A stretch of 64,000 nucleotides of DNA. Source: an uncultured Acidimicrobiia bacterium (lineage in GTDB: Bacteria > Acidobacteriota > Terriglobia > Versatilivoradales > Versatilivoraceae). The notes below the pieces were generated by a model, which saw nothing but the letters and a program-made list of their open reading frames with translations, was not told where the DNA came from and made no database searches. The DNA is taken from assembly GCA_963786955.1 (NCBI GenBank), contig CAWBAT010000008.1, positions 512,001-576,000 on the forward strand. Direction: 5' to 3'. Below, piece by piece: positions 2,399-25,400 of this stretch (position 1 is its first letter; every line of letters begins with the position of its first letter). The position numbers were made by a program, and so were the translations under genes.

Positions 2399-3490
2399 AT
2401 GGAAAATTCATTGACGAACAACGCCAGTCGCGTCCGGGTCATTAAGGCGCTGAATTTCGAAAAGCCCGATCGGATTCCCCATCACGACGACTTTTGGCGA
2501 CAGTTTGTAGACCGGTGGAGGATGGAAAAAAGTCTGGGAGCGGAGGCGGACATTGAGGACTACTACGACGTGGACATCCGAATCTCGACTCCCGCGGAAG
2601 AAGGATGGCCCAGCCAGGCTGGGGTTGTGAAAGAGGAGGAAGGTTACGTCATTTACCGCAATGGTTGGGGTATGTTGCAACGCCAGTTGGCTCACTCCTT
2701 CGGAGAAATGCGCCACGGCTTTTTCGGACAGGAGTTGCAGGTGGTCTGTCAGGAAAAAATCGATCCAGACAAGCTGGAATTTGAATCTCCCCACGACGAT
2801 GGTCGTTATGAGTGGACAAGCCGGTTCGTCCGCAGAAACGCCGATCGGTTTGCGATTTTCGGGAAGGTGGGCGGACCCTACATGCGGACCGGTCAGCTTC
2901 GAGGAACTGAACAATGGTTAATGGATCTGGCCGAAGATCCCGAATATGCTCGCGACCTGGCCTCCAAAGTCGCGGATCATCTGATTCAGATCGGTTTGGA
3001 ACAACTTCGGCGCGACAATCTGAGCACGACTGGACTGTGGATCTTCGATGATATTGCGGGCAATCAGGGAATGGTTATGAGTCCCCGCAGCTACGAGAAA
3101 ATCTTTTACCCATCTCTGGTCAAAATGGTCAAGACCTGGAAGGCGGCGGGTGCGGCAAAAGTTCTGATGCACTCCGACGGCAACATCGAAGCTGTGTTGG
3201 ATCTGTTCGTCGCAGCCGGAATCGACGCAGTCAATCCTGTCGAGCCGAAGGCGGGCATGAATCTCGAGCGGCTGCGGAAGAAATACGACGGGAAGCTGGC
3301 CTTTATTGGGGGAATGTGTAATGCACGAGTTTTGCCTCAAGGTTCTCGGGAGGAGATTGTCAGACACGTCCAAAGTATTCTCGAATTAGGAAAAGAGGGA
3401 GGCGTTGTCTTAGCAGCTCATTCTATTGGCTCCGACATCTCAATCGAACATTTCGATTGGGCCATGGAGGCCTATTACAAGTACCGCTGA
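2399..3490 (+). CDS. Uroporphyrinogen decarboxylase / MtaA-CmuA-like family protein
   Basis: PDRIP N-terminus, LRG-E, FDD, 'MHSDG', NPVEP, AFIGG and GGVVLAAHS motifs. GAGGAG RBS. Confidence 0.85.
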   Translation: MENSLTNNASRVRVIKALNFEKPDRIPHHDDFWRQFVDRWRMEKSLGAEADIEDYYDVDIRISTPAEEGWPSQAGVVKEEEGYVIYRNGWGMLQRQLAHSFGEMRHGFFGQELQVVCQEKIDPDKLEFESPHDDGRYEWTSRFVRRNADRFAIFGKVGGPYMRTGQLRGTEQWLMDLAEDPEYARDLASKVADHLIQIGLEQLRRDNLSTTGLWIFDDIAGNQGMVMSPRSYEKIFYPSLVKMVKTWKAAGAAKVLMHSDGNIEAVLDLFVAAGIDAVNPVEPKAGMNLERLRKKYDGKLAFIGGMCNARVLPQGSREEIVRHVQSILELGKEGGVVLAAHSIGSDISIEHFDWAMEAYYKYR

Positions 3491-3498
3491 GGCCCTGG

Positions 3499-3623
3499 AG
3501 ATACGTTGCCAATTTTCGAGAAATGGCGCAGATAATCCGCAAGCAACGATCTTCGTCATTTTCTTCCAAGCACGACTTGATCGTGCAGGAGACTTTGTTG
3601 CGATCCAGTGGCGTTCTTTGAAG
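3499..3623 (+). repeat. 125-bp direct repeat, copy 2 (duplicated 3' end of the Gfo/Idh/MocA gene)
   Basis: About 95% identical to 382-506, including the stop codon. Confidence 0.95.
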
Positions 3624-3653
3624 GAGACAAAACCAAAAAGGTAACTGAAGAAT

Positions 3654-4475
3654 ATGTCCAATCAGAATCGACTACGACAGGGGCTCGGCTGCAGCTTGTT
3701 AGGCCTCGTTTTCTCCTCTAGCTTGCTGGGGGCGGAGACTGGAACCGTTCCTGGCATTCAGGTTTTCAAAGTGACTGACGGGGTGCCCTTCAGGATGGGT
3801 AAAGTGGACTCACGGCGGATTCTTCATCCGGATATGGGCGCCAGGAAACTCACATTGAATTATGCCGTTTCGCAACCCGGGCATGAATTTCCGCAGCACG
3901 TCCACGATTACTCTGATGACACATTTCTCGTTTTACAGGGACAAGTGGACGTGCGCCAGGGAGATTCCCGGCTGCCGTTATACACTGGACAGGCAGCCTT
4001 TGTCCCCTCGGGTCAGATTCACGGCACCATTACCACGGGGACGGGAACAGCCATTCTGATCAGCTTCCAGTGTCCGCCCGATAGGGCGCTTTACTCAGGA
4101 GATCGGGACTCTTCCCGGCCGGGAGCCACTCCGCCCAAAGGCACGATTACACCAGGTGCAGTAAAGCTATTGGATTTTTCCAACCAGAACGGCTTCTTCG
4201 TATATCCAGCAATGGGCTCAAAGCGAGTTGCCGTGGCGCATCGAAAGCTGAAACCTGGCGAGAAGTTCTCGACAGACGTAGCGGAGGACGAGGAACAGAT
4301 GCTGTTCGTATGGAAAGGTGGTCTCACAGTAAGATCACAGCAAGGGATCTATGAGGTTGGGGAGAGAGAAACGGTATTCATCTCGGGCAGAAACAGCTTG
4401 GAGGTCCAAAACAACTCCTCTGTTCAAGCTATCGTCATTCAGGTCCAGGCCCCACCACATTCTGGTTGGAAGTAG
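3654..4475 (+). CDS. Secreted bicupin-domain protein
   Basis: Signal-peptide-like N-terminus. Cupin metal motif PQHVH...F.VLQG...VPSGQIH, followed by a second degenerate cupin (EQMLFVWKG). Confidence 0.75.
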   Translation: MSNQNRLRQGLGCSLLGLVFSSSLLGAETGTVPGIQVFKVTDGVPFRMGKVDSRRILHPDMGARKLTLNYAVSQPGHEFPQHVHDYSDDTFLVLQGQVDVRQGDSRLPLYTGQAAFVPSGQIHGTITTGTGTAILISFQCPPDRALYSGDRDSSRPGATPPKGTITPGAVKLLDFSNQNGFFVYPAMGSKRVAVAHRKLKPGEKFSTDVAEDEEQMLFVWKGGLTVRSQQGIYEVGERETVFISGRNSLEVQNNSSVQAIVIQVQAPPHSGWK

Positions 4476-4477
4476 GC

Positions 4478-4640
4478 ATCAGTGGCATGTTCTGATTCAA
4501 AAGGAAGACGAGTCGGTCGTGGCTGAAGTGCCGTTGACTAAACAAAAAGCCAACAATGACGTCGAAAAGTTGACGATCAAGCTTGAGAAGCAAGGCAAAC
4601 GCACTACCAAATGGTGCTTTTGGAAAGGAACGCATCCTAC
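4478..4640 (+). pseudogene. Gene remnant resembling the C-terminus of a DUF2911-like protein
   Basis: QWHVLIQK...VAEVPLTK...VEKLTIKLEK...W reads like a beta-rich C-terminal fragment. No start codon. Confidence 0.3.
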
Positions 4641-5038
4641 TTCTTGAAATAGGCTGCGGCGGCTTCGCGAACGAACCGGGCACATCGATGAGCCTTAAAG
4701 TCTTGTTCCAATATGTCAGCCAGCTTTTCCAACTCGACCTGACTGGCTCGCCCAGGCCGGAGCGCATTGTAAATCAGCAGGATTCGTTCTTCTGGCAGCT
4801 CGGCGAGTTCTGCGGCACGTCTGAAATTCTCGGCCAGTTGCGGTCTGCCAGCGGTTGCGGCCAGTTGAGCTTGAAGCTCCAGCGCCTCTGCCGTAACCCG
4901 CAAGTCTGACATGGCCACCTTTCCTTCAAGAACTGCCTCTAACGTGACATCCTGAAACGCCTGACCTGAAGGCGTTCTCAATCGCTCGGGCTGTTTCTCA
5001 GATAGCGGATAATTCGGGACAATCGGTTTCTCTTTCAT
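4637..5038 (-). CDS. pduE: B12-dependent diol/glycerol dehydratase small (gamma) subunit
   Basis: YPL..K.P..LRTPSG, DLR, LAENFRRAAEL, IYNALRP.R, A.FVREAA..Y. Overlaps the upstream gene by 4 bp (ATGA). Confidence 0.95.
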   Translation of the reverse strand: MKEKPIVPNYPLSEKQPERLRTPSGQAFQDVTLEAVLEGKVAMSDLRVTAEALELQAQLAATAGRPQLAENFRRAAELAELPEERILLIYNALRPGRASQVELEKLADILEQDFKAHRCARFVREAAAAYFKK

Positions 5039-7332
5039 GTGCGGACACGAAGCTCTTGAGGCGGTTTGTTTGGATCCACTTGCTCGGTCTCAAATAAGTG
5101 GAGCAGCGTTGTTTTCACGATATATTTCAGCCGGGCCATATTGTCGATTTCGATGGGCACGGGAAGCACCGGCTCTCCCTTGGCGTATTTAGAGGCATTG
5201 CGGCCAATCACTCGATAAGACTGCAACGTGAGGTTGGGAGCCTGGGGAAATAGTTCCAAATTGTTCAGCGGCTCAAGGTCTTTACGGTGAATTACGGTGG
5301 TCCCTTTCGATTGAATTCCAATGCTGACCCCGGAGCCGCTTAACTGAGCGCCGGCGTGGCCGATGAAGCCGCAATCGGAGGTGGAGTAAATTTTGACGAC
5401 TCGCGCCGTCATCCCCTCCTCCTCGATTCCTCGGATGATGGCTTTCAAAACCTCCTCATGAGGCAGACCCAGGAGCGTGGCGTCCAAAGCGGATCCAAAA
5501 GCCGGCCCCACCGCCACGACGATTTCTTCAATTTGGCGGCTGGCGGCGGCCTGACCAATCTCTTCCAAGAGACCCTGGAGTTGGTCGCGGCTCGCCCTGC
5601 CGATCTGTCTCGGATCCTTGGCCTGCGGGATGCCAGCCAATTCCTGCCAACGTTCTCCGCTCAGCCGGTATCCGGTTCCGGGCCCCTGATAGTCATTCGC
5701 ATCATTGAGCGCGCTAAGGACTCGTAAGTGAATCGAGGAGTTATTCTGTTGGCTGATGGAATCTTCGAAACCATTGACCGAGCCGGCCCCCTCGGCTTCC
5801 GCCAAGAGCACAGCAGAAGTTTGAAGGTAATCCCCCGAGATTCGAAGTTTTTGAATCTGTAATATCTTTTCGGCAATATCGCGAAATCCACGCCTCGCCA
5901 GGGCTCGAATCACATCCAGACCGTTCCGGCCCTGCAGCAGGAAATTCTCCGCGGCCGCGAGATCGGCCACGACCTCTCGATCGGGCATGTCGGCACTGCT
6001 GCGGGCAACCACTGCGGCCTGAACCTCCGCAGCGGTGATCGCCGGCAGTCCCAGGTCTGCAAAGACCGCTTGAATGGCCTGCGCCGCACGTCTTCGGACG
6101 TCCATCACTTCTGTTTCGCGAACCGGGCGAACTCCACCGTCCACCTGCATGTCGCGCTGCAAGATGTTATAGTCATCCAGGTCATCTGAGTCGAAATTGC
6201 CGCCACCGAAAAGATTGTCTTCTCTCGGCATGGAACTGTATCCCGAAAAGATGAAATCGGTCCCCGGCAAGAACTGCAACATCAGCTTCGAAGCCTTTCG
6301 AATCTGAGAATGAGATGCCATGGCATCATTGCCTGAGGCGATTTCCAGGTCAAGAAGGGCAGCGATGAGGTTTTCAGCCAAGACGCCGCGAACTCCTCCG
6401 GGCAGCGACTCAGGAAGAGCAATGCAACTGATTGAACCGTTCTGCACTCCCTGAGAGCCAGCGCCTTTGATGGCGACCAGACATCGTGTCTCCAGGTACA
6501 GCATCGATTTGCCTTCGGCATGACCCATCAGTGCTTCAGAGCCCGAACCTGAAGTAAATCGCACTTTGATACCCCGAGAGGCATAGGCAGATGCCAGGAA
6601 GGCTTTGGACCAGGGTGTGTCGTCCCCATCGCGAAAGGCCGGTTCTGTTCCATACACCGAGAGCGTCTCTGCATAGGTCGTGAGTCCCAGCCAGGCCAGT
6701 TTCAAGCTGAGAGCTTCTTCAACGGCGCATTGAGTGAGAGCCGTTCCCCTCCCGGTCTGGGAGCCGATTAAGACAGCCATGGCATTGAATGGCGCATAGC
6801 GGGACACACCTACGGTGGTTTCCAACTCCGAAAACCCCCTCTCTACAGCCTCAGCCGCATCCGCCGCGAGTAACGCGGGATTTTCCTTTCGGTTGGTGAC
6901 GTGGGCCTGATTCGAAGGAGTTCTCCGTGCCCGCATTTTCTGCAAAGCCATCATCATCTCGACCACATTGAGATGGTTCACCACTTCCATGATTTTTGCC
7001 GGAGTCAGCCCGCTGAAGACTTTCACCACTTCCTCGCGAGGGCTCTGGAAGTCCACAAGTTTGCGGGCGATGGCGAGGGGATTCATGGCCATGCTCTTTC
7101 TGGCTCTCGAGGGGTCAATGGCATAACGGGCGATGAATCGATCGATCACATCGAATTCTGCTTCGGTCTTGCCATCCAACTCGGTGATTCTTCCATCGAC
7201 AACACGGATCTGAGGCTTGGGATCACCCGGGCTGTTGAACACAATGAGCCCGGTCTCGGGCCATTCGTGGATAAAGCTGTCTTTGTTAATGTCTCGCTGA
7301 GATCGAGATTGGAAGCGCTTGGAGCGATTCAT
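5035..7332 (-). CDS. pduC: B12-dependent diol/glycerol dehydratase, fused large (alpha) + medium (beta) subunits
   Basis: Alpha motifs RSKRF, QAHVTN, ETTV, YAETLSVYGT, DGDDTPWSK, QNGS, FLPGTDF and NDYQGPGTGYR are followed in frame by beta motifs GPAFG, GIEEEG, SGSG.SIGIQSKGT and NLELFPQAP. Start taken at ATG 7332. Confidence 0.95.
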   Translation of the reverse strand: MNRSKRFQSRSQRDINKDSFIHEWPETGLIVFNSPGDPKPQIRVVDGRITELDGKTEAEFDVIDRFIARYAIDPSRARKSMAMNPLAIARKLVDFQSPREEVVKVFSGLTPAKIMEVVNHLNVVEMMMALQKMRARRTPSNQAHVTNRKENPALLAADAAEAVERGFSELETTVGVSRYAPFNAMAVLIGSQTGRGTALTQCAVEEALSLKLAWLGLTTYAETLSVYGTEPAFRDGDDTPWSKAFLASAYASRGIKVRFTSGSGSEALMGHAEGKSMLYLETRCLVAIKGAGSQGVQNGSISCIALPESLPGGVRGVLAENLIAALLDLEIASGNDAMASHSQIRKASKLMLQFLPGTDFIFSGYSSMPREDNLFGGGNFDSDDLDDYNILQRDMQVDGGVRPVRETEVMDVRRRAAQAIQAVFADLGLPAITAAEVQAAVVARSSADMPDREVVADLAAAENFLLQGRNGLDVIRALARRGFRDIAEKILQIQKLRISGDYLQTSAVLLAEAEGAGSVNGFEDSISQQNNSSIHLRVLSALNDANDYQGPGTGYRLSGERWQELAGIPQAKDPRQIGRASRDQLQGLLEEIGQAAASRQIEEIVVAVGPAFGSALDATLLGLPHEEVLKAIIRGIEEEGMTARVVKIYSTSDCGFIGHAGAQLSGSGVSIGIQSKGTTVIHRKDLEPLNNLELFPQAPNLTLQSYRVIGRNASKYAKGEPVLPVPIEIDNMARLKYIVKTTLLHLFETEQVDPNKPPQELRVRT

Positions 7333-7637
7333 AATCAGGTAGCTCCGGCAAAGCTGGAGGCTTAGTCTTGCAAAACTAAAAGTGGCCGACTTCGAGATTC
7401 CCCCTTTGCAGGGGCGCACCGTCGGCTGCGGGGGATGTCTTGCTCGAATAGAACTTAGCTATAGGCTGCGCGGGCATCCCTTTGCACCCCGAAGACTCTT
7501 TCAAAGATCTCGATCTTCGCAGTCATAATACATTCGAACTGGCCGATGGGAGAAGCCAGTGGGATGCTCCCTTCGCTCGCGACTTGGAACCTTTACAGAT
7601 TAGCGGGTTTCTCATACCAAAGGATTATCACTCAGCA

Positions 7638-8609
7638 TTACCGGGGGAAGATCGGTGCAATGCCCGAAGCATGGACCATCAGCGTTTTCTCTTCATCCAG
7701 CTGAATTGGCTCAAATGTCTGCGCCACGTCCATAGCCAGGCGGAAGTACTTCTCGTCTCCTGGCGGGAGCGCTGCTGTAATGGGTTGTGAAAGCGTCCAG
7801 CGCAGCCCAAGGGTGGCTTCGTCTGGGAAAGCTGCAGGTTGATACCAGCACTGGGGATTGGGGCGCTCACTTTCCTTCATGGCTTTGGGCCATTTGGTCT
7901 TTGCCATCGCTTTAAGTGCCAGGATACCCACTCGTTTCTGGCGCGCCCTTTCCACGACCTGCGGTCCGAAGTTTCCTTGTGAATAGAGGACGAAATTAAT
8001 TGGGAAAAGTATCGTATCGAACTCATAACGGTCAAGGCACGCATATGCAGCCTCGACAGAGTGAGCCGAAAACCCGATCAAACGCACTTTCCCTGCCTTC
8101 CTGGCAGCCTGATAGGCTTCCATCGCCCCGTCAGGACCAAACACCGCATTCACTTCATCTATCGTCGTTAGAGCATGAAACTGGTAAAGGTCGATATGAT
8201 CCGTGCGCAGCTGTCGAAGAGATTCTTCAAGCTCTTTTGCAGCCCCACTTTTGGTCCGATTCCCACTCTTGCATGCGAGAAATGAACGATTGCGATAAGG
8301 CGCAAGCGCAGGCCCTAGACGCTCCTGAGCGTTGCCGTATGTTGGAGCGACGTCGAAATAATTGATGCCCCGATCGTACGCCTCGGCGACTATGTTATTG
8401 GCAAAGGACTGTTCAGTACCCCTGACGGCGACCCCCCCGAAGCCGACAATGGAAAGTTCTATACCCGTCTTACCCAGGGGCCGCCTGGGAACCGGCGGTA
8501 GTCTACCCGCCGAGTCATTGGCTTTAGCCAGCGGTTCGACGACCTTGTTCGAAACCATACAGCCAGCAACCGCAGCCGTACCCTTTTTTAAAAAGATTCG
8601 TCGGTCCAT
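7638..8609 (-). CDS. Aldo/keto reductase with Tat signal
   Basis: MDRRIFLK twin-arginine signal; RRPLGKTG, GINYFDVAPTYG, SLRQLRTDHIDLYQFH. Confidence 0.9.
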   Translation of the reverse strand: MDRRIFLKKGTAAVAGCMVSNKVVEPLAKANDSAGRLPPVPRRPLGKTGIELSIVGFGGVAVRGTEQSFANNIVAEAYDRGINYFDVAPTYGNAQERLGPALAPYRNRSFLACKSGNRTKSGAAKELEESLRQLRTDHIDLYQFHALTTIDEVNAVFGPDGAMEAYQAARKAGKVRLIGFSAHSVEAAYACLDRYEFDTILFPINFVLYSQGNFGPQVVERARQKRVGILALKAMAKTKWPKAMKESERPNPQCWYQPAAFPDEATLGLRWTLSQPITAALPPGDEKYFRLAMDVAQTFEPIQLDEEKTLMVHASGIAPIFPR

Positions 8610-9103
8610 AACTACCTATTCTAATTGAAATCTTTCATTCCAAATGTATCTTTTGTGAAAAACTTTATCTCATTCATTCTCACGCTCGTAGCCAAATCAT
8701 CGACACGAACACCCGACTCATGTGTGGAGCAAAACTTCAGAAAACAGTAATTGGGGGCGCGAATGAAAATACCCGTCTCAAACCGTGTGATTAAAATAAA
8801 GCGTGTCCTAAAAGGAATCTCCATATTGAACACCAAGCCGAAAGAATTTGGTAGGCAATCGTCGAGAAGGACCGCTAAGTCACTGGGCGGTTGCTTTGCG
8901 AGTCACAATGAGTCTGACAAAGTCTCAAAGAAGGATCCTGAGCCTTTCCATACTCTATGATCGCCAGGAGCAAAAAGGCTCCACATTATTTCGAGGATGC
9001 TAGAATTCAATACCCATCAGTTCTTTCGGGTAGAAGTATTCCTTTACAACAGGATTAATTGCCAAGAGTAAGACGGCTGTCCTTAAAGGCAGCGTGACAA
9101 GAT

Positions 9104-10435
9104 CTATTTCGACTTGTCGGATTCCCACACATGAAGTTGTGCCAGAATGCTCTTGCTGATTTTCGCCACGACGTGCTGCTGCGGGTCAACAATTTCCGCA
9201 ATGTCGTAGCGGATTCCCGTACCCAACACAATTGCGAGTTCAGCGGAGTTCAACTGGTAATCGCTTTCGAGCCATTTCATAAGTTCGGATGTAGCCAACT
9301 GCATTGCGTCGGTCAACGAGCCGCCTATTCCCATCGCCATCAGAAAATCATCGTTTTCCGCGCGAGGGGATTTGCTCGACTTGTCCGGCACGAGTTCCAC
9401 AGTGAACTCCACATCGAAAGAGGTTTCCAGCGCTGCCAGCTCACCGTCTCCCTCGGCAGCGTGTCCATCCCCAAAGAAGAGCAGAGCACCAGGATGGAAC
9501 ACAGGGAGGTATACCGTCGTACCCTCACGAAGCTGGTTGTAGTCTAAGTTTCCACCGAAGTCCCCCAATAAATGGGCAGACCACGATTGCTGGTCTCTAG
9601 GCGCCACACCAATGCATCCAAGAGTCGGATGCAAAGGGACGACGTAGTCCTTAAGGGCTGGCGTCGGGTTGGCTAATTTAGCCACATTATGTTCCCGGTC
9701 GAGATTCCAATGGCTATCAAAATTCTCAATCGATCTGATCTGTGAGATGTAATCGGGAGCAACCACTGCGGGATTAATCTTGTGGCCGCTTATGGCCGAA
9801 TCACGGTTGAGCCGAATACGGGAGAAATGAACAACTAGAGTGTCACCCGGCAATGCGCCTTCCACATAAAACGGTCCAGTCAGCGGATTGCCCTCATTTC
9901 CTCGCCGCACCAGGTTCTCGTCGAGCCCCAGTGCATCGATGGTTTTCGTTCGGACAGTATCCCCCGGAAAAATTCGCAACGCTGGGGGAAAAGCATAAGA
10001 AAAGGCGAGGTAATAGTTGTGAGGTTGGAAGTCATGAGTGTGCGACGCCCCAGGGGGGCGGGCACTTGGACGCCGTGCGGTCCATTTACTTTCCCCGCCA
10101 GCAACTCTTCCTTCGCCAGCCATTTCTCCGTGTTGCAGTCTCCCTGCGAACTCTCCATAAACTTCTCCATTCGGGCGCCGAACCTGGAACTCCACTGTCT
10201 TGTCGTTGAAACTTCCCTTAACACTCATGCCGCCGGTATGGCCGACGATACGGTCCCCCGTAAGGTCAAGCCTTAAGCGGCAAACATTCTCTACTCCAAA
10301 AGTCACAACCGTCATTTCCCACACACCAGCAATTTCATTGGTCTGTGGCGTTTGGGTGGACTGGCCAGCGTTAACGACTGGATTTCCGCTTGAACACAAG
10401 GCAGCCAATGCGATGGTGCTAGTAAAACGCTTCAT
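9104..10435 (-). CDS. Acetamidase/formamidase (FmdA/AmdA) family protein with signal peptide and extra N-terminal domain
   Basis: NPLTGPFYVEGA.PGD, GGNLD, GALLFFGDGHAAEGDGE motifs. Confidence 0.85.
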   Translation of the reverse strand: MKRFTSTIALAALCSSGNPVVNAGQSTQTPQTNEIAGVWEMTVVTFGVENVCRLRLDLTGDRIVGHTGGMSVKGSFNDKTVEFQVRRPNGEVYGEFAGRLQHGEMAGEGRVAGGESKWTARRPSARPPGASHTHDFQPHNYYLAFSYAFPPALRIFPGDTVRTKTIDALGLDENLVRRGNEGNPLTGPFYVEGALPGDTLVVHFSRIRLNRDSAISGHKINPAVVAPDYISQIRSIENFDSHWNLDREHNVAKLANPTPALKDYVVPLHPTLGCIGVAPRDQQSWSAHLLGDFGGNLDYNQLREGTTVYLPVFHPGALLFFGDGHAAEGDGELAALETSFDVEFTVELVPDKSSKSPRAENDDFLMAMGIGGSLTDAMQLATSELMKWLESDYQLNSAELAIVLGTGIRYDIAEIVDPQQHVVAKISKSILAQLHVWESDKSK

Positions 10436-10631
10436 GTTTATTTCACCTCATAGAAGATTGCGGTTGTTTCCAGACCTATTTCTGTTTAAGACAAAGGGAA
10501 CTAAATTGTCAAGTTTGAACGCTCCTTTTACAATGCCATTGGTCTCATCTGTTCGTCCTCGCAAGTTCCCTAGGCTGAAATAATAGAACCTATTGGGTGG
10601 GGGAATAATCTCGCGAACGATTTAGACAGCT

Positions 10632-10700
10632 GGATTCATTTTTGAAGTATATATAGAGTCTATTGGTCGTCAATGGCATTCTTACTTCTAAGATGAAACA
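10632..10700. promoter_or_regulatory. Two copies of a putative 18-bp palindromic operator (TACTTCA-N4-TGAAGTA consensus)
   Basis: GGATTCA-TTTT-TGAAGTA (10632-10649) and TACTTCT-AAGA-TGAAACA (10683-10700). Similar sites occur at 22230 and 47001. Confidence 0.45.
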
Positions 10701-10705
10701 AATAC

Positions 10706-10738
10706 TTGACACAAATCCTCTAGGAAGATATATATAAT
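10706..10738 (+). promoter_or_regulatory. Putative sigma70 promoter for the dehydratase-lactonase operon
   Basis: TTGACA at 10706, then 17 nt, then TATATA(TAAT), in an AT-rich divergent intergenic region. Confidence 0.55.
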
Positions 10739-10887
10739 TTCAACTTTATCTCTTTGCTTTTGTTTGATTGAAAATGGCTGATATCGATCCTCTTGATAAG
10801 GAATTGACCTTTAGAGGTGGCGCCAAGATTGTGTCATAAGGATTTAATCAGAACAGTGTCGGCTGTAAGGCATTCCAAGGGGGGGGC

Positions 10888-12612
10888 ATGACAAAGGTCT
10901 TGCGTAGTTCTCGCTGGTTCGCTCGGAACGATGAAAATGCCCTCAAGAGCCGGGCGGCGTTGCGGTGTGAAGGATTTACTTCGCGAGCCTTTGAGGGCAG
11001 GCCTGTAGTGGGTATCTGCAATTCGTGGAGTGAATTCAATAATTGTAATGCTCACCTGCGTGCGGTTGCAGAGGCCGTAAAGCGGGGAGTGTGGGCGGCA
11101 GGCGGGTTCCCACTGGAGTTTATGACGATATCGCTGGGCGAAGAGCTCATGATGCCCACGGCCATGCTCTATCGAAACCTAATGGCTATGGATATAGAGG
11201 AAATGATTCGTTCGAACCCAATGGACGGCGTCGTTCTGCTTTGCGGCTGCGACAAAACCACTCCTGCCCAACTCATGGGGGCGGCAAGCATGGATATTCC
11301 CGCGATCATGATTCCAGGGGGGCCTATGCTTAGTGGCATGTGGAGGAATCAACCTCTGGGATCTGGGACTGACCTTTGGAAGTACTGGGATGAACGGCGT
11401 GCCGGCCGTATGAGTGATACGGAGTGGCAAGAATTTGAGGGCGCCATGGCGCGTGGTCCCGGGCACTGTAATACGATGGGCACCGCAAGTACGATGACGA
11501 GCTTGGCCGAGGCTTTGGGGATGACCCTTCCAGGTTGCGCCAACATTCCCGCCGTCGATTCGCAACGCTATGCTATTGCTGAGACAAGTGGGCGCCGAAT
11601 TGTGGAGCTGATAAAAGAGGACATTCGACCATCGCGCGTCATGACCTCCGCAGCAATTGAGAATGCCATTTGCGTCGCTGCGGCGATAGGAGGATCCACA
11701 AACGCGGTGATCCATCTTATCGCGATCGCAGGACGATTAGGCATAACTTTGTCGCTCGAGAAATTCGACGCAATTTCTCGCACAACACCTGTCATTGCCA
11801 GCGTTCAACCGTCGGGGAAATACCTGATGGACCAATTCTACCATGCAGGGGGCCTCCCCGCTTTGATGCGGGAGATCCTGCCGCTTTTGCACGGGGACCA
11901 GCTCACCGTCAATGGCCGAACGATCGCTGAAAATGTGGAATGCGCGCAGTGCTATGACCGTGACGTGATTCGTCAGCTTGATAACCCCGTGCACCCGAAA
12001 GGTTCGCTTGCTGTGCTTTATGGCAACCTCGCCCCGAACGGTGCGGTCATCAAGACGTCAGCGGCTTCCAAGCACCTCCTTCAGCACACCGGCCCTGCCC
12101 TGGTCTTTGAAAACTACGAGGAAATGACCGAGCGAATCGATGATCCTTGCCTGAATGTCAATGAGAAGAATGTGCTTTTGCTGAAAAATGCGGGTCCTGT
12201 CGGCGGACCGGGGATGCCCGAGTGGGGCCAAATTCCAATACCTGCCCAGCTTCTAAAGCGCGGGGTCGTGGACATGGTCCGGATCAGCGACTCACGAATG
12301 AGTGGGACTAGCTATGGTACGGTTATTCTTCACGTCGCGCCTGAGTCCGCCGTGGGTGGCCCCCTCGCGATCGTGCAAAACGGGGATCTGATTCAATTAG
12401 ATGTTGAAAATCGGCGCTTGGACCTGTTGATTCCGAAAGAGGAATTTCAGCGCAGAATGAGTGCCTGGCTTCCTTCTCCGCGGAAATACAGGCGGGGCTA
12501 TTACACCCTGTTCTTAGATCACGTTCTTCAAGCGGATAAGGGATGCGACTTTGATTTTCTTCCTGCTGAGCCGGGCGAAGAACCCTACGAACCCATGATT
12601 GGCCGCACGTGA
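10888..12612 (+). CDS. IlvD/Edd family sugar-acid dehydratase (L-arabonate/D-xylonate dehydratase-like)
   Basis: CN.H, GCDKT, GHCNTMGTAST, GGSTNA, GPGMPE, SD.RMSGTSYG, QAD.GCDFDFL motifs. Confidence 0.9.
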   Translation: MTKVLRSSRWFARNDENALKSRAALRCEGFTSRAFEGRPVVGICNSWSEFNNCNAHLRAVAEAVKRGVWAAGGFPLEFMTISLGEELMMPTAMLYRNLMAMDIEEMIRSNPMDGVVLLCGCDKTTPAQLMGAASMDIPAIMIPGGPMLSGMWRNQPLGSGTDLWKYWDERRAGRMSDTEWQEFEGAMARGPGHCNTMGTASTMTSLAEALGMTLPGCANIPAVDSQRYAIAETSGRRIVELIKEDIRPSRVMTSAAIENAICVAAAIGGSTNAVIHLIAIAGRLGITLSLEKFDAISRTTPVIASVQPSGKYLMDQFYHAGGLPALMREILPLLHGDQLTVNGRTIAENVECAQCYDRDVIRQLDNPVHPKGSLAVLYGNLAPNGAVIKTSAASKHLLQHTGPALVFENYEEMTERIDDPCLNVNEKNVLLLKNAGPVGGPGMPEWGQIPIPAQLLKRGVVDMVRISDSRMSGTSYGTVILHVAPESAVGGPLAIVQNGDLIQLDVENRRLDLLIPKEEFQRRMSAWLPSPRKYRRGYYTLFLDHVLQADKGCDFDFLPAEPGEEPYEPMIGRT

Positions 12613-12742
12613 TGCCATCTACCAAGTTGCAAGCAAATGGATACATAAGGGCGAGCTAGCTTCTCTAGCGGGGGCGAACCGGAACAAGTACCCTTGGCGG
12701 AAGGGAAGGAAGGCGTCAACCTTCAGGAGTAAGTCCTTCCCG

Positions 12743-12843
12743 TTTGCAGCAGTGCTATTTGTCATTGGTCAATTTCCGTTTACCATCTTTCATTTAATCT
12801 TCTCAATGGAAAATGAGAAATGAACAGTGAACAATGACAAATA
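12743..12843. repeat. Heptamer-periodic (AATGANA-like) imperfect hairpin repeat element
   Basis: TATTTGTCATTG (12756) / CAATGACAAATA (12832) inverted arms. 12743-12809 recurs inverted at 36559-36625. Confidence 0.75.
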
Positions 12844-12886
12844 AGTCTCCTTTGGAAGACCTCGTGCTCTCGGAGGAGCGCTGACC

Positions 12887-13789
12887 ATGGGTGAAATCGA
12901 GATTGCAGCTGACTTCGGCGACCTCGTCGGCGAAGGACCGGTTTGGGATGCCGACACCGGGGTTCTGTATTGGACGGACCTGGTCGGCCACAAGTTCTGC
13001 CAGCTGACCTGGCTCTCGAAGAAGGCCCAGGTCTTGCGGAATGGAGTTGAAGTGACCGGATTTGCCTTAAACCGTACCGGTGGGTTTGTGGTTGCAAATA
13101 CTCATGGCATTTGGCTGTGGGATGGCGAAGGGAAGATGAGCCTGGTTGTGGCCGAGGTCGATGGCATGATTTGCCGGATGAATGATGCCACCGCCGATCC
13201 TATGGGACGTTTTCTGGCTGGCTCCTGCTTTTACGAGTCGAGCGGGGACTATACGCTTGGGTGCCTGATTTCGCTGAATACAGACGGCCTCGCCACGGTC
13301 ATTGACGAAGGCATTCACCTTTCGAACGGGCTAGGGTTTTCGCCCGATACGGCACAGCTTTATTATACGGATTCGGCGGCGCGGTGCATTTACCGATACG
13401 ATTACAACGCTCGGACAGGTCAGGTCCGTAATCGCTCTGTTCTCGTGCGTGTGCCTGATGATGAAGGCATACCTGATGGGCTTGCCGTGGATGCCGAGGG
13501 GTTTCTCTGGTCTGCCCAGTGGTACGGCAGTTGTGTGGTTCGATACGACCCTGATGGAAAAATCGAACGCCGAATTCCCACTCCGGCCAAACAAACTTCG
13601 TCGGTGGCATTTGGAGGACCGGATCTCACAGACCTGTTCATCACGTCCGCTGCTAGGACATATCCCTCGCCACTCATGCCTCCCGGATATGACCCTCACG
13701 CAGGTTTCATCGGAGGTCCGCTCTATCACCTGAACCTTGGCATTCAGGGGAAGTTGGCCTTCAAGGCAAACGTAAAGCTAACGAAGTGA
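12887..13789 (+). CDS. SMP-30/gluconolactonase family sugar lactonase
   Basis: GEGPVW, RMND, SNGLGFSPD, PDGLAVDAEG, AFGGPDL motifs. Confidence 0.92.
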   Translation: MGEIEIAADFGDLVGEGPVWDADTGVLYWTDLVGHKFCQLTWLSKKAQVLRNGVEVTGFALNRTGGFVVANTHGIWLWDGEGKMSLVVAEVDGMICRMNDATADPMGRFLAGSCFYESSGDYTLGCLISLNTDGLATVIDEGIHLSNGLGFSPDTAQLYYTDSAARCIYRYDYNARTGQVRNRSVLVRVPDDEGIPDGLAVDAEGFLWSAQWYGSCVVRYDPDGKIERRIPTPAKQTSSVAFGGPDLTDLFITSAARTYPSPLMPPGYDPHAGFIGGPLYHLNLGIQGKLAFKANVKLTK

Positions 13790-13819
13790 GGGATTGGAAC
13801 TCACGAGGTGGAGTCGCCA

Positions 13820-14536
13820 TTACAAATTTGGCGGTGGCTGCGAAGGCCATATTTCAATGCGGTTGACGAGTGCCCTGGCAGGAAGCTTGTAGAGATCGAT
13901 CACGACCTTGGCGATATCCTCGACGGCCAATTTCCAGGGCTCATACCCTCTGCTTTCCACCGAGACGCTCCCCGTAACAATCTCGCTGACGCGGATGCCA
14001 TCGTGGCGAAGATCTTTCATCATCGTCTCGCTGAATCCACTCAGTCCAGTCTTGGAAGCATTGTAAGCGCTCCCACCAGGGAATAGGACAACCACAGCCA
14101 CACTCGATATATTGAAAATGTATCCACCGCCTTGTTTGCGCATGAGCGGGATGGCTTCGTGGCTGCAGTAAAACACCCCAGAGAGGTTGGTCCCAATCGT
14201 GGTGTCCCACACTTCTGGAGTAATCTGATCAACGGGCTTATAGATGTGACCCACACCAGCGTTATTCACCAAAATGTCAAGACGACCAAATCTTTCTGCG
14301 GCTGCTCGGATTAGGTTGCGGCACACCTCATAGCCCCGGACATCTGCGACCATGCCGTCTATGCACTGCTTGCCGTCCTGCCCAAGCCGGTTGAGAGCCG
14401 TCTTTAATTGCCCTTGGTCGCGGCCACAGATGAAAACTTTTGCCCCTTCAGTCAGAAGTGCTTGGGCGATACCGTAGCCAATTCCTCTTGTACCTCCCGT
14501 GACGATGGCAACCTTGTCCTTCAGCTCCAAACTCAT
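13820..14536 (-). CDS. SDR family oxidoreductase
   Basis: TGGTRGIG, NNAG, YNASK. AGGAGG RBS before ATG 14536. Confidence 0.9.
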   Translation of the reverse strand: MSLELKDKVAIVTGGTRGIGYGIAQALLTEGAKVFICGRDQGQLKTALNRLGQDGKQCIDGMVADVRGYEVCRNLIRAAAERFGRLDILVNNAGVGHIYKPVDQITPEVWDTTIGTNLSGVFYCSHEAIPLMRKQGGGYIFNISSVAVVVLFPGGSAYNASKTGLSGFSETMMKDLRHDGIRVSEIVTGSVSVESRGYEPWKLAVEDIAKVVIDLYKLPARALVNRIEIWPSQPPPNL

Positions 14537-14608
14537 CTGGATTCCTCCTATGGCGCATCTGATTGCGCTCAAGAAACCCTTCCAGCTCCGAAAAACGACC
14601 TTAATTTC

Positions 14609-15856
14609 TTAATTTATAATCTGTCGTTGATTTGTCCGCTCTCGTAAGTACCATTCGAGAGCGATGATGGACATTCCCAAGCTAAATAGCGGCATCAACC
14701 AAATACTCGTTTCTATACCGAGACGCTTTCCCAAAAAGCCGACAACGTATGAACCTGTACCCCCGCCAATGTACCCGATTGCGGTCATCATGGAGAAGGC
14801 AGTTACAGCTTGGGCAGAGAAGCGCACGCCTGCGTAGGAACTGAGCGAAGGTGCATCTCCTGAACCGAAGATCCCAGCGACACCAAATGCGATCAGTCCC
14901 CATGAATAGCTTGGGGAAACAATGGCCACGACATAGCCCACCGTTTCCACGGCGGCGCAAGTGGCCAGGACCACGAGCTCAGGGATCCGCCAATGCGACG
15001 TAATCCAACTCAGTAATAACCGCCCTGATAAGAATCCTCCGGTAAGGGCGCTGAGAAAGTAAGCCGCGTGAGCGGCGTCAATTCCCAGCTTCTTCTGATA
15101 CAACTGTCCCACAAAGAAGACCATACCTCCGTTGCTGATTCCATGGAGAACATTAAGTGCGCCTAGGCAATACATCGCAGGGTTTCGTAAGAGATGTTGG
15201 ATCTCTGAAAGGCCTCTGGGCGTGGGGAGTGCCTTCGCACCTTTTCCGGAGTGAGCCCCGACTCGAAGCCCTAACGGCAAGGGAATCATGAATATGATGA
15301 CGATAGCAGTCAGGTAATAAGCTGAGCGCCAGCTCCCCCCGAGGCGTTCCGAATGAATCAACCACCAGCCAATGGCAGCAGGGACGACAACGCCGCCAGC
15401 AGAACCGATCAACCACTGAAGCGAAAAGAGGCTCTGGCGTATCCGGCTATAATCCTCGGTAACGATGGTGCTGATGATCACCACGATGGATAGATTACCC
15501 AGCCCTAAGCAAAATGCTCCTACGAGTATGACTGAAAAGCCCTGGGCGCTGCCAATCACGATGAGCGCTCCTGCAATCAGCGCTAGTGTTGATGCAAGAG
15601 CGCGCCTTTGTCCCAAACGTCCGACGATTTCTCCGCCCACCATGCTAAATAGAAGCGCGCTCATATAATAAAGAAGCGCGATGCGGCCTAACTGTTCCAA
15701 GTTTGAGCTGAAGACGTGCTTGAAAATGGGGAAGGTTGCAGGGATAAATGTGAGAAGTCCTCCTGATGCGAAAGAAAGAGCCAGCACCAGCCCGATCACA
15801 GGATCTTTCCAGAGAGGGCCAGCTTTTAAAGGCAAGGTTGTCTTTCCGGGAATCAT
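14609..15856 (-). CDS. MFS transporter (paralogue of 34136-35371)
   Basis: 12-TM pattern. Shares PA.FPIFK, SWR..YY, FVGQLYQ.KL.IDAAHAA and W..PEL with the second copy. Confidence 0.85.
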   Translation of the reverse strand: MIPGKTTLPLKAGPLWKDPVIGLVLALSFASGGLLTFIPATFPIFKHVFSSNLEQLGRIALLYYMSALLFSMVGGEIVGRLGQRRALASTLALIAGALIVIGSAQGFSVILVGAFCLGLGNLSIVVIISTIVTEDYSRIRQSLFSLQWLIGSAGGVVVPAAIGWWLIHSERLGGSWRSAYYLTAIVIIFMIPLPLGLRVGAHSGKGAKALPTPRGLSEIQHLLRNPAMYCLGALNVLHGISNGGMVFFVGQLYQKKLGIDAAHAAYFLSALTGGFLSGRLLLSWITSHWRIPELVVLATCAAVETVGYVVAIVSPSYSWGLIAFGVAGIFGSGDAPSLSSYAGVRFSAQAVTAFSMMTAIGYIGGGTGSYVVGFLGKRLGIETSIWLMPLFSLGMSIIALEWYLRERTNQRQIIN

Positions 15857-22477: not shown

Positions 22478-25400
22478 ATGAAACCTAAGACTCTATGCTT
22501 AAGAGCGTTCATCGGGTACTTGCTTTGCTATATGTCGCTGGCCGGGAATCTGCATTCGCAAGGATTAACTGCAACCCTCACGGGTCGAATTCTCGACCAG
22601 TCGGGCGGTTCAATCGCAGGAACTCGTATTGTGGCTACCCATGCGGATACTGGCTACACAAAAGAAGTCACGACAAGCGAAAGCGGCTCCTACAGTCTGA
22701 CTGCCTTACCCGTTGGAGTTTACTCAATTGAGGCAAGTATGAAGGGCTTCAAGACATTGAAGAAGACTCCTGTCACTCTGAACGCCAATCAACAGCTTGC
22801 TCTGGATTTTACGCTTTCTCCGGGCAGTGTTGAACAATCTATCGAGGTCAATTCCGATGTGCAGTATATCCAGACTCAAGATGCGACAGTCAACGCGAAG
22901 GTCTACATTGATCAGGCTCAAAACCTGCCTTTGAACAGCCGGAGCCCATTTGAACTGGCCCTCTTGAGCCCCTCGATTTCGGTTTCCAAGCAGCAGAGCG
23001 GCCCCGCCATGCAATTCAATATTAATGGCTCGAATGCAAACGGCTATAAGCTCAGTTTTGATGGGATGGAGGCCGGTATCGGTGGCGATGCGCAGTACTG
23101 GGCCGGTAACAACTTTAATTTGTCCATCACAAGCCTGGATGCCATCCAAGAGTACGACATTGCAACCAGTAACTACTCGGCGGATATCAAGGGCTCGAGC
23201 GGCTATGTGAATATTGTTTCAAAGACCGGGACAAACCAAATCCATGGCAGCTTCTATGACTTTTATCGCAACGGTGCGCTTGATGCACGCAACTTTTTTG
23301 AGGCAAAAGCAGGGAGCTTAAAACTCAATGATTTTGGCGGAACCATAGGGGGCCCCATCAAGAAAGACAAAATCTTCTACATGGTCAGCTACGAAGGCCA
23401 GCGAATCCATGTTCCATTCGCTGGATTTTCGCGGGTTCCGACTGCAGCTTTTCGGGCCATCGTCGATCCGCGCATGCAACCCTTCCTCAACCTGACTCCC
23501 CTTCCCACCGAGGCCATCCCTGGAGACCCTGTCATTGGGATTTGGAGAGGTAACCCTTTATCCATCGCTTCGCAAAACCTCGTGACCGGTCGAATGGATT
23601 TCATTTTCGGGCAGAAAGATCGGCTTTTTGTGCAGTACACCTTCAATGATGGAGATCTCTCAGGTGCGACTTTAGATCCACGCGTTTCTCAACAGAACGT
23701 TCAAACCATCTACCCAGGCTATGCCACTCTTCAGCCAGAAAGGCACCAGAGCGCTACATTAGGCTGGACTCGCACCTTTTCGCCTACATTCGTGAATGAC
23801 CTCAGGGTTGGAGTCAATCGGTTTCTGCAAGGACGAGTTAGGGGGCCAACCGACCCGGCCTATTTTGACGTACCCGTCATTTCCGTCCCCGGGCTGGTCA
23901 TCGGAGGGGGTGGAAATAAAAAGAAGCTTGGCAATACCCAGCCCCAGTTGTCTGACAAGGCTACTTGGGTCAAAGGGAGAAGCACGTTTTCGTTTGGAGG
24001 GAATTACGCTTTCCTAATGAGTGGGCAGAACTCATTCTCCGTAATGTCAATGGCATTTGTTAACGCTGCCGGTTTCGCTGCTGATAAGCCTAGCAGTGTT
24101 AGCAGTACGTATGGGACAAGCCTTACGCAACTGGGAGAACACCTTAGTTACAACCAAGTGGGGCTCTTCGTCCAGGAAGACTTCCGGTGGAAGCCCAACC
24201 TAACAGTGAACATTGGTCTTCGTTACGACAACTTTGGGGTGTTTAGCGACTCGACATGCAATGCGAAGAACGTGATCAGTACGCCTTTCGATCCATTTCG
24301 TCCGCCTTGTGATCAACTGTATGACGGGAACAACGACTTTGGACCGCGGTTTGGATTTGCTTGGACACCACTCTCTGGGAAACCGTTTGTCTTGCGGGGC
24401 GGATTTGGCATATTTTACGGGACACACGTAAGCGGCCAAATGGGCGACGTCCTCGGCATCAATAATTCCCTGCCGTTCTCGGCGACGGCAACCGATTTCC
24501 CAAATCTATCCTATCCGTTTTCTCCAGGGCTCTTTGCTAACGTCACGGCCAAACCGGGCCGGTTTGTTCTCAATCCCACCACACCGGATCTTTATTCGGA
24601 GCAATGGAACCTCACGGCCGAATACCAGTTCACTAATTCCATGATTTTCAGCTTGGCTTATGTGGGGAATCATGGATTACACGTCCCGGTGACTCAACGC
24701 CCGAACACATACTATCCTATCGTCGGATCGCGTCCGAGTACGAGTTTCGGTGATATCAGAATGGTAGCAAACGAAGGCTACATGTTTTACAACGGGTTGC
24801 AAGCTACTCTGAGACGCCGACTCTCTAATAATCTTGCTTTTGATGTGAACTACGCTTGGTCACATGCGACTGGTTTTACGAGCGGCAATCTGGATATCAG
24901 TGCTGCTGTTTCTTTCAGTGATGACCAAGTGCAGACCGTCCTGAACACAAACCTTTCGCGGGGGACTTTGCCTACCGATGTAACCCATAACTTTTCGGGT
25001 GATTTCATCTACCAACTGCCCAAACTAGCCAATTCAAGCAAGTGGGTCAGAGCTTTTCTCGGCGATTGGACTACGTCTGGGCTCATGAAGATATCGAGCG
25101 GGCTTCCCTTCAATCTTACTACTGGACTAGACGCCGGCGACCAACGTTTCACTCAAAGACCCAATATTGTTCCGGGCGTGTCCTTCACCAAATCTGGTGT
25201 TTCACCAGCCGATGGGATTCTCAACCGGGCGGCATTCACGGTACCCACATATGTTTATCCGACCTATGGACTGAAATTGGGAGACATGGCCAACAATAGT
25301 GTGAGAATGCCTGTCACTTTTTATGCTGATTGGATGGTCCAGAAGCGAGTGTTCACTACGGAAAAGATATGGCTCGACTTTCGTACCGAGTTCTTTAACG

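Follow-up and report, generated by a model that had tools for sequence, protein, structure and literature searches.

The window analysed here is a stretch of 64,000 nucleotides (positions 512,001 to 576,000 of contig CAWBAT010000008.1, assembly GCA_963786955.1) from an uncultured soil acidobacterium of the Versatilivoraceae, order Versatilivoradales. On its minus strand it carries two overlapping genes for an adenosylcobalamin (AdoCbl)-dependent diol/glycerol dehydratase, in which the large (alpha, PduC) and medium (beta, PduD) subunits form one polypeptide. An earlier sequence-only reading had described this pair as a stand-alone enzyme with an altered active site, lacking both a reactivase and a microcompartment. 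The genes and their parts, in window coordinates, are as follows.

5035..7332, minus strand: fused pduC-pduD gene, 765 aa plus stop, for a single polypeptide that unites the large and the medium subunit of an AdoCbl diol/glycerol dehydratase
5602..7332, minus strand: alpha (large-subunit) part, residues 1-577, with residues 2-553 of 1dio_A aligned to query residues 3-577
5581..5601, minus strand: junction, residues 578-584, between the end of the 1dio_A alignment (query 577) and the point where residue 44 of 1dio_B begins (query 585)
5035..5580, minus strand: beta (medium-subunit) part, residues 585-765 plus stop, by Pfam, NCBIfam and 1dio_B (44-222 = query 585-763)
4637..5038, minus strand: pduE-like gene of the small (gamma) subunit, 133 aa, Pfam Dehydratase_SU, overlapping the fused gene by 4 nt
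6316..6330, minus strand: motif N335-D336-A337-M338-A339, which in the alignment replaces the canonical NDQTF; the Ala337 codon lies at 6322-6324
about 5728..5796, minus strand: low-complexity insertion of 23 residues (about 513-535) after the LQTSAV helix, placed by alignment, present only in the window and one relative (L006), with low fold-model confidence

The fusion of PduC and PduD, already recognised from the letters alone, is borne out by the family models. The single open reading frame (ORF) of 765 aa (5035-7332, minus strand, ATG at 7332) matches Pfam Dehydratase_LU (PF02286) over residues 3-575 (E 1e-262, 872.8 bits against a cut-off of 25) and Dehydratase_MU (PF02288) over residues 610-722 (E 2e-31, 108.4 bits against 27), and it passes the NCBIfam models of the large subunit (NF011979, 866.6 bits, cut-off 788) and of the medium subunit (NF011616, 257.3 bits, cut-off 248). 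The PduE protein matches Dehydratase_SU (PF02287; E 3e-47, 160.7 bits, cut-off 25) and stays under all curated NCBIfam small-subunit cut-offs (at best 160 bits, cut-off 183). A longer ORF from a GTG at 7419 is possible on paper; the ATG at 7332 is favoured because the alignment with the Klebsiella enzymes starts at Met1 (MNRSKRF/MKRSKRF) and GGAG stands 9 nt ahead of it. Over its full length, the fused protein is 57-58% identical to the solved Klebsiella enzymes. Its best PDB matches are engineered alpha-beta fusions of the K. pneumoniae glycerol dehydratase (9VIG series, E 2.5e-272), and the K. oxytoca structure 1DIO aligns with E 5e-223 for alpha and 1e-58 for beta.

The junction comprises only 7 residues in place of the approximately 43-residue N-terminal extension of beta: the beta part begins at K. 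oxytoca beta residue 44 (1dio_B 44-222) and PduE at gamma residue 40 (1dio_G 40-165). Since the alignments start at these residues, both N-terminal extensions are absent, as had been proposed. The enzyme would thus consist of two proteins, the alpha-beta fusion and gamma, presumably assembled into a dimer like the solved enzymes. The fold model of the fused protein, built from a 24-sequence alignment, is too poor for pocket analysis (mean predicted local distance difference test score 64, predicted template modelling score 0.46). The insertion, first estimated at about 20 residues and 5722-5808, proved to be 23 residues at about 5728-5796; it has equal length and no conserved sequence in the window and its closest relative L006, which makes it, on the alignment, a quirk of this lineage and not a clade feature. 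A promoter/terminator scan of positions 4300-9100 gave counts no higher than the shuffled level, and no Rfam family reached its gathering score within the window, so that no cobalamin riboswitch lies near the fused gene.

The fused gene is under purifying selection: dN/dS (the ratio of nonsynonymous to synonymous substitution rates) against relatives is 0.04-0.10 in four of six pairs, the other two being saturated at dS. Contigs from public metagenome runs (contigs from four runs, the matching pieces from one) match pieces of the gene at no less than 99% identity with zero indels listed, no single piece spanning the whole gene. That the gene is decaying or inactive might be suspected from the rest of the assembly, which contains one fragmented gene of the methylmalonyl-CoA mutase (MCM) family and no adenosyltransferase. 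However, the intact reading frame, the low dN/dS, the retention of all catalytic residues and the independent metagenome contigs, at least 99% identical and with no indels listed, make decay extremely improbable.

HMMER alignment to the chains of the Klebsiella glycerol and diol dehydratases sets query residue n equal to K. oxytoca n-1; Ala337 (GCC, 6322-6324) therefore corresponds to K. oxytoca Gln336, and the proposed change from NDQTF to NDAMA stands at exactly this position and not elsewhere. In K. oxytoca numbering, which is used from here on, the protein retains Q141, H143, E170, E221, T222, Q296, S301, D335, S362 and F374. All seven residues that we take to be the catalytic and Ca2+/substrate residues (Q141, H143, E170, E221, Q296, D335, S362) are among them, which agrees with the sequence-only reading for the six that it had named (H143, E170, E221, Q296, D335, S362). 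Its positions and its statements on residues thus prove right. After Asp335 the canonical Gln336-Thr/Ser/Ala-Phe is missing, and the window protein reads Ala-Met-Ala.

To place this variant among its relatives, a one-genome-per-species scan returned 80 loci, 49 with a single fused ORF and 31 with separate pduC and pduD. The fused loci belong to Solibacteraceae/Bryobacteraceae-type Acidobacteriota (69-83% identity), plus three Anaerolineales, one Arenicellales and one Syntrophales, and pduE follows the fused gene in 44 of the 49. The unfused loci come from Firmicutes, Actinomycetota, Aeromonas and others, and two of the 31 also hold an extra fused paralogue. Further fused lineages were revealed through 50%-identity representatives: a Gaiellales/Thermoleophilia group, 57% identical to the window (423 relatives found, 80 of them compared), and an alpha-proteobacterial group with Shinella, Ancylobacter, Hyphomicrobium, Mesorhizobium and Agrobacterium among its members, 43-46% identical (at least 533 relatives, 80 compared).

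The sequence-only reading had proposed a phylogeny of “NDA” versus “NDQ” sequences, and the two do separate. In a tree of 64 rows and 503 large-subunit columns (IQ-TREE quick search, LG+G4), the NDA rows, 27 in number, group into a single clade with a support of 100 in the Shimodaira–Hasegawa-like approximate likelihood ratio test (SH-aLRT), within which the acidobacterial rows form a subclade of 12 (99). The support is still 99.5 after the motif columns and two fragmentary rows are dropped. The alpha-proteobacterial genes are a separate deep clade (14 rows, support 100), and the Firmicutes fused paralogues branch among the canonical genes and retain DQTF. By its sequence, the window gene thus belongs to a monophyletic fused NDA subfamily with the signature ND-A-[M/L/I/V]-[A/S], which is distributed over Bryobacterales-type Acidobacteriota, Gaiellales and Chloroflexota.

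This signature is strictly conserved. D-A-[M/L]-[A/S] occurs in 43/43 acidobacterial-type fused ORFs and D-A-[I/V]-[A/S] in 80/80 Gaiellales ORFs, and all of these 123 NDA-type ORFs retain the catalytic residues and Ser301. Among the unfused ORFs, 30 of 32 have D-Q-[T/S/A]-F; of the other two, one is an NDA-type ORF cut off by the end of its contig and one a Firmicutes paralogue with N301/T336. When positions conserved to at least 90% within each group and differing between the groups were compared (125 NDA against 30 canonical rows), 14 clade-defining changes emerged: L9R, D149E, Q153L, I154L, G212A, V266A, G304A, Q336A, F338A, R345K, R348K, N369R, A375G and S377G. Several of them adjoin S301, D335 and F374 in sequence, so the pocket region appears remodelled as a set. 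Side chains become smaller at some of the clade positions but bulkier through T337M and G304A; a larger cavity in the NDA enzymes is conceivable.

Two other fused groups deserve description. The alpha-proteobacterial clade has Asp at position 301 in 80/80 sequences, with Ala (48), Thr (26), Cys (5) or Val (1) at position 336 and mostly Arg/Lys at 337. Its loci (L170-L249) lie amid genes for sugar-type ABC transporters, a short-chain dehydrogenase/reductase (SDR), a class-III aminotransferase and an APH-family kinase; on the Shinella plasmid NZ_CP132313.1 (L166), an FGGY kinase and a DeoR regulator also stand beside the fused gene, and a bacterial microcompartment (BMC) gene is near it in 3/80 loci. 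S301D, T337R/K and these surroundings suggest a charged or amino-polyol substrate. In Firmicutes, one locus of bacterium UBA5559 (L061) has three diol dehydratase copies (2718-4985, 9947-12259 and 12671-14908), including a fused paralogue that keeps NDQTF and the unfused copy with N301/T336, and a second fused paralogue occurs in L082 (1941-4187). The Firmicutes fusion arose independently of the NDA clade.

Within the Acidobacteriota, the dehydratase was found in 23 of the 31 genomes of the order (the window's own and 22 of 30 relatives of its family) and in 0/400 genomes from the rest of the phylum; because of the latter, it is confined, among the genomes searched, to the window's family. Both genomes of the window's own genus are without it. 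This distribution fits acquisition by transfer and later patchy loss, the nearest clades being those of Gaiellales and Chloroflexota. At 90% clustering, 7,990 scored relatives were found in soil and sediment metagenomes; the best 120 of them are without exception fused forms, with 72-100% identity.

The second feature of this subfamily is the lack of a recognisable reactivase. The sequence-only reading had seen none in the window, and the search of the whole genome extends this: the assembly (9 contigs, 5.65 Mb, 93% complete) gave no match to the reactivase family DDR (PF08841) in a hidden Markov model search, the best tblastn match of PduG had E of only 0.26, and EutA was not found either. 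A reactivase gene elsewhere in the genome, which would have spoken against the sequence-only reading, thus did not turn up. Since the sole Dehydratase_MU match of the genome lies inside the fused gene, there is no free PduH-like protein. DDR exceeded the Pfam cut-off in 0/31 genomes of the order (0/30 for the relatives; two sub-threshold matches, E about 1e-3), although 7 of the 23 dehydratase carriers are single-contig genomes rated 100% complete, and in 0/400 further Acidobacteriota genomes. Because the 400-genome search matched nothing, a positive control was run, and it found DDR in 3/3 genomes behind canonical loci. The same family gave no match in two closed chromosomes behind NDA-type loci, one of Terriglobia and one of Gaiellaceae.

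Gene neighbourhoods tell the same. With PduG-like ORFs from Levilactobacillus and Aeromonas loci as queries, a PduG-like ORF was found in 29 of the 31 unfused loci vs. 0/49 fused loci. Counted by ORF, such a gene flanks 30/32 unfused ORFs as against 1/45 fused ORFs of the first set, 0/80 of Gaiellales and 0/80 of the alpha-proteobacterial clade; the lone fused ORF with this neighbour is the Firmicutes L061 paralogue, which is not of the NDA type.

The claim that no microcompartment is involved needs a more differentiated answer. It holds for the window, in which neither DDR nor BMC domains occur, all the matches of the whole-genome search lying elsewhere, and it holds for the targeting peptides; it fails for the genome, where four BMC-domain matches occur at three sites (loci L250-L252). 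These comprise C5:889k (887-890 kb; BMC-H, EutN and a class II aldolase), C8:386k (385-387 kb, 126 kb from the window; BMC-H and an aldehyde dehydrogenase) and C6:374k (372-376 kb; a tandem-BMC protein, a PduS-like flavoprotein and an aldehyde dehydrogenase). This scattered set resembles, we assume, the aldolase-containing planctomycete/verrucomicrobial (PVM-like) type. One can therefore ask whether the dehydratase is the cargo of a PVM-like microcompartment encoded at a distance, the more so as BMC domains occur in 30/31 genomes of the order. However, they occur with or without the dehydratase, which 8/31 genomes do not have, and for this near-universality they give no co-occurrence signal with it. 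A BMC shell gene accompanies 27/31 unfused loci vs. 0/49 fused ones, and none was found in the flanks of 44 NDA-type acidobacterial and 80 Gaiellales fused loci. Above all, the beta and gamma extensions that target PduD and PduE are missing. This is why we argue for a cytosolic enzyme and regard encapsulation as very unlikely.

The surroundings of the two genes in the window include the following features.

7638..8609, minus strand: aldo/keto reductase (AKR), a possible aldehyde-to-diol or aldehyde-to-alcohol partner, 305 nt upstream of the fused gene and on the same strand
2399..3490, plus strand: URO-D/MtaA-like gene, convergent with pduE and found again near the dehydratase in some, though not all, acidobacterial loci
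22478-25519: TonB-dependent receptor

Positions 1-22020 form a sugar/sugar-acid oxidation island with a GFO/IDH/MocA oxidoreductase, two major facilitator superfamily (MFS) transporters, the URO-D/MtaA-like protein, a bicupin, three AKRs, an acetamidase-family protein, SMP-30 and PTE-family lactonases, an SDR, two GDSL esterases and an HpcH/HpaI aldolase. Its ILVD/EDD enzyme resembles L-arabinonate dehydratase (874 bits, model cut-off 882). As far as this one locus goes, the island enzymes could oxidise sugars to 2-keto-3-deoxy acids, which could be cleaved to pyruvate and glycolaldehyde or lactaldehyde, and the neighbouring AKR may reduce these aldehydes to ethylene glycol or 1,2-propanediol. 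In the Gaiellales, an aldehyde dehydrogenase adjoins the dehydratase in 30 of 35 loci sampled from the 80, which fits a route from diol through aldehyde to acid.

Is the remodelled pocket meant for another substrate? The sequence-only reading had taken this step, from Q336A to larger sugar-derived diols or polyols, and some data point that way. Five of the 14 changes introduce smaller residues near the pocket (Q336A, F338A, V266A, A375G, S377G), the window gene lies in a sugar oxidation island, and the separate alpha-proteobacterial clade, also without Gln336, resides in sugar-type ABC transporter/kinase clusters. According to PMC9850924, the S301A/Q336A double mutant, with or without V300M, takes longer diols and 1,2,4-butanetriol. 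The same paper, however, credits only these combinations with that preference; the single Q336A exchange gave a higher selectivity for 1,2-propanediol over 1,2-butanediol and 1,2-hexanediol. The preference for longer diols that the sequence-only reading credits to Q336A is thus reported only in combination with S301A, and Ser301 is kept in 123/123 NDA-type ORFs. Moreover, T337M and G304A add bulk, and no sugar or polyol genes are conserved beside the acidobacterial genes. Hence, the larger-substrate step of the sequence-only reading does not follow from the published mutants, and a pocket fitted to C4 and longer diols, butanetriol, tetritols or other sugar-derived polyols seems to us rather doubtful.

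The other effect ascribed to Q336A, a lower inactivation by glycerol, is confirmed by the table of PMC7674605 (after Yamanishi et al. 2012): with glycerol, kinact falls from 1.15 to 0.081 per min, i.e., 14-fold, and kcat/kinact rises from 0.009 to 0.022. With Ser301 invariant throughout the NDA clade, less inactivation is better backed by published work than larger substrates. The review containing this table also records slower inactivation in lysate for an engineered alpha-beta fusion.

Perhaps, the enzyme has ordinary kinetics and is repaired by other means: an unrecognised cofactor-exchange factor, such as an escorting PduO-type adenosyltransferase or the URO-D/MtaA-like neighbour, or simply resynthesis. 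A PduO-type adenosyltransferase is present in 30/30 relatives, the URO-D/MtaA-like gene is near the dehydratase in the window and in seven other acidobacterial loci, and PMC4777399 raised the same option for Mesorhizobium in 2016. Nevertheless, the acidobacterial loci share no conserved neighbour of the fused gene except pduE, the URO-D-like gene does not occur in the Gaiellales and alpha-proteobacterial loci, and a pocket signature so strictly conserved throughout a deep clade speaks for a function of this signature itself. We therefore hold hidden repair to be unlikely.

As to the URO-D/MtaA-like gene itself, the seven other loci are L020, L021, L022, L023, L025, L032 and L034. It is mostly convergent right after pduE and does not occur in Gaiellales, alpha-proteobacterial or unfused loci; its product has weak similarity to methylcobamide methyltransferases, far under the cut-offs, and may handle cobalamin. 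URO-D is also the commonest family in the Pfam tally of flanking ORFs (6 ORFs; 117 of 125 scanned, the 8 longest being left out). Elsewhere in the genome, one cobalamin riboswitch was found, and two MCM-family genes are intact; another MCM-family gene is split into five frame pieces (C6:188935-190471).

Taking these data together, the interpretation that we prefer, with about even confidence, is that the window encodes a working cytosolic AdoCbl diol dehydratase of the NDA subfamily, which acts on a short diol, manages without reactivase or microcompartment and has pocket changes that lower suicide inactivation. Since the Ca2+/substrate ligands and the residues of the radical chemistry are intact, conversion of a short vicinal diol into an aldehyde is expected, the likeliest substrates being 1,2-propanediol, ethylene glycol or glycerol. 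The enzyme would run without DdrAB/PduGH/GdrAB and outside any microcompartment, because the remodelled pocket, perhaps together with the tethered beta, would lower suicide inactivation by the substrate to the point where ATP-driven cofactor exchange becomes unnecessary. By analogy with the engineered variants, a reduced need for reactivation is plausible.

One can tentatively go a step further and suppose that the NDA clade is a natural answer to inactivation, in which the tethered beta and the remodelled pocket (Q336A, T337M, F338A and others) resist suicide inactivation, and possibly oxygen, in the cytosol of aerobic soil bacteria; this is possible, but we would not call it probable. Under such a scenario, the fusion would be mechanistically connected with the loss of the reactivase: a beta bound covalently to alpha is not free for the proposed repair by beta-subunit swapping.

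Several points weigh against the preferred interpretation of a working, inactivation-tolerant cytosolic dehydratase. First, Q336A alone is not simply beneficial: with 1,2-propanediol, kcat drops from 304 to 109 per s, Km rises from 0.06 to 0.57 mM and kcat/kinact worsens from 0.73 to 0.11 (same table of PMC7674605), and T337M puts bulk beside the lost Gln. Second, fusion, loss of Gln336 and absence of a nearby reactivase each need only about three changes on the tree, so that their association is not amenable to a statistical test. Third, the literature search found no biochemical data for any member of the NDA clade. Fourth, at the strict threshold used, the AKR, aldolase-island and cupin genes of the window have counterparts in 0/49 fused loci, and no neighbour cluster except pduE exceeds 5 of 34 acidobacterial loci; with the gene context not conserved, inference of the substrate from the window is weak. 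Finally, no adenosyltransferase of the PduO type (PF01923) or CobA type (PF02572) was found in the assembly. The latter is probably an assembly gap, because PF01923 is present in 30/30 relatives of the order; together with the broken MCM-family gene, it may reflect assembly gaps, indel errors or real decay.

AdoCbl (B12) glycerol and diol dehydratases are workhorses for the production of 1,3-propanediol, 3-hydroxypropionate, propanol and butanediol. Suicide inactivation restricts their use, as does the dependence on a reactivase, ATP and additional B12. A large, conserved natural lineage that pairs the inactivation-lowering substitution with the fused topology used by engineers, and lives without a reactivase, provides ready-made candidates for dehydratases needing no repair system. 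With this lineage, the question posed in 2016, whether reactivation is dispensable, becomes open to experiment, and the commonness of the gene in metagenomes of soil and sediment hints at a so far unstudied route of diol turnover in Acidobacteriota, Gaiellales and Chloroflexota.

Natural fusion, missing reactivase and deviant active site as such are already in print, since 2010 and 2016 (PMC4777399, PMC7674605). PMC7674605, citing Liu et al. 2010, mentions for M. loti and M. smegmatis natural enzymes of alpha-gamma type that have the beta part fused in; Martins-Pinheiro et al. 2016 (PMC4777399) added the fused enzyme of Hyphomicrobium, noted that dhaF and dhaG are absent and the hosts aerobic, quoted Liu et al. 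for a “slightly different” active site, and proposed that reactivation may not exist or goes by another route. For M. smegmatis, PMC4881515 and PMC8088520 give three “large subunit” genes and zero medium-subunit genes. The literature search found no paper characterising a natural fused enzyme or tying the enzyme to Acidobacteriota, Bryobacter, Solibacter or Gaiella. New relative to the literature found is an NDA subfamily, deep and strictly conserved, that spans Acidobacteriota, Gaiellales and Chloroflexota and the signature of which includes, according to the alignments, the substitution chosen by engineers to slow inactivation.

Like the window locus, the fused enzymes of M. loti, Hyphomicrobium and M. 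smegmatis have the large and medium subunits in one gene followed by the small-subunit gene, without dhaFG/ddrAB, a deviant active site and hosts that are not classic fermenters. Unlike it, the Rhizobiales/Hyphomicrobium type forms a separate deep clade with S301D and T337R/K, whereas the window protein keeps Ser301 and belongs to the A-[M/L/I/V]-[A/S] type.

With K. oxytoca PddABC (1DIO) and the K. pneumoniae glycerol dehydratase (1IWP/1MMF), the window enzyme would share the fold and, judged by alignment, all catalytic residues and Ca2+ ligands. However, the Klebsiella enzymes consist of three separate subunits, with N-terminal extensions of beta and gamma in the diol dehydratase, have Gln336-Thr-Phe and depend on a DdrAB/GdrAB reactivase encoded next door, while the genome of the window has no reactivase match. 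The Salmonella/Citrobacter PduCDE belongs to the same family and presumably has the same chemistry as well, but the window enzyme is without encapsulation peptides, adjacent shell genes, PduGH, PduO/S, PduP and PduQ, all of which except the peptides were seen to accompany the unfused comparison genes (e.g., PduG in 29/31 and a BMC shell gene in 27/31).

The engineered enzymes come close from the other side. The K. oxytoca Q336A and S301A/Q336A variants have the change at position 336 in common with the window protein, in which, unlike in the engineered variants, the change is natural, stands among 13 other fixed substitutions and leaves Ser301 unchanged. The alpha-beta fusions that were engineered from the K. 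pneumoniae glycerol dehydratase (9VIG series; Wang 2009, Maddock 2017 and Gibson 2013, cited from reviews) have the same head-to-tail topology; these fusions use a designed linker onto a full-length beta, while in the window 7 residues lead directly to beta residue 44.

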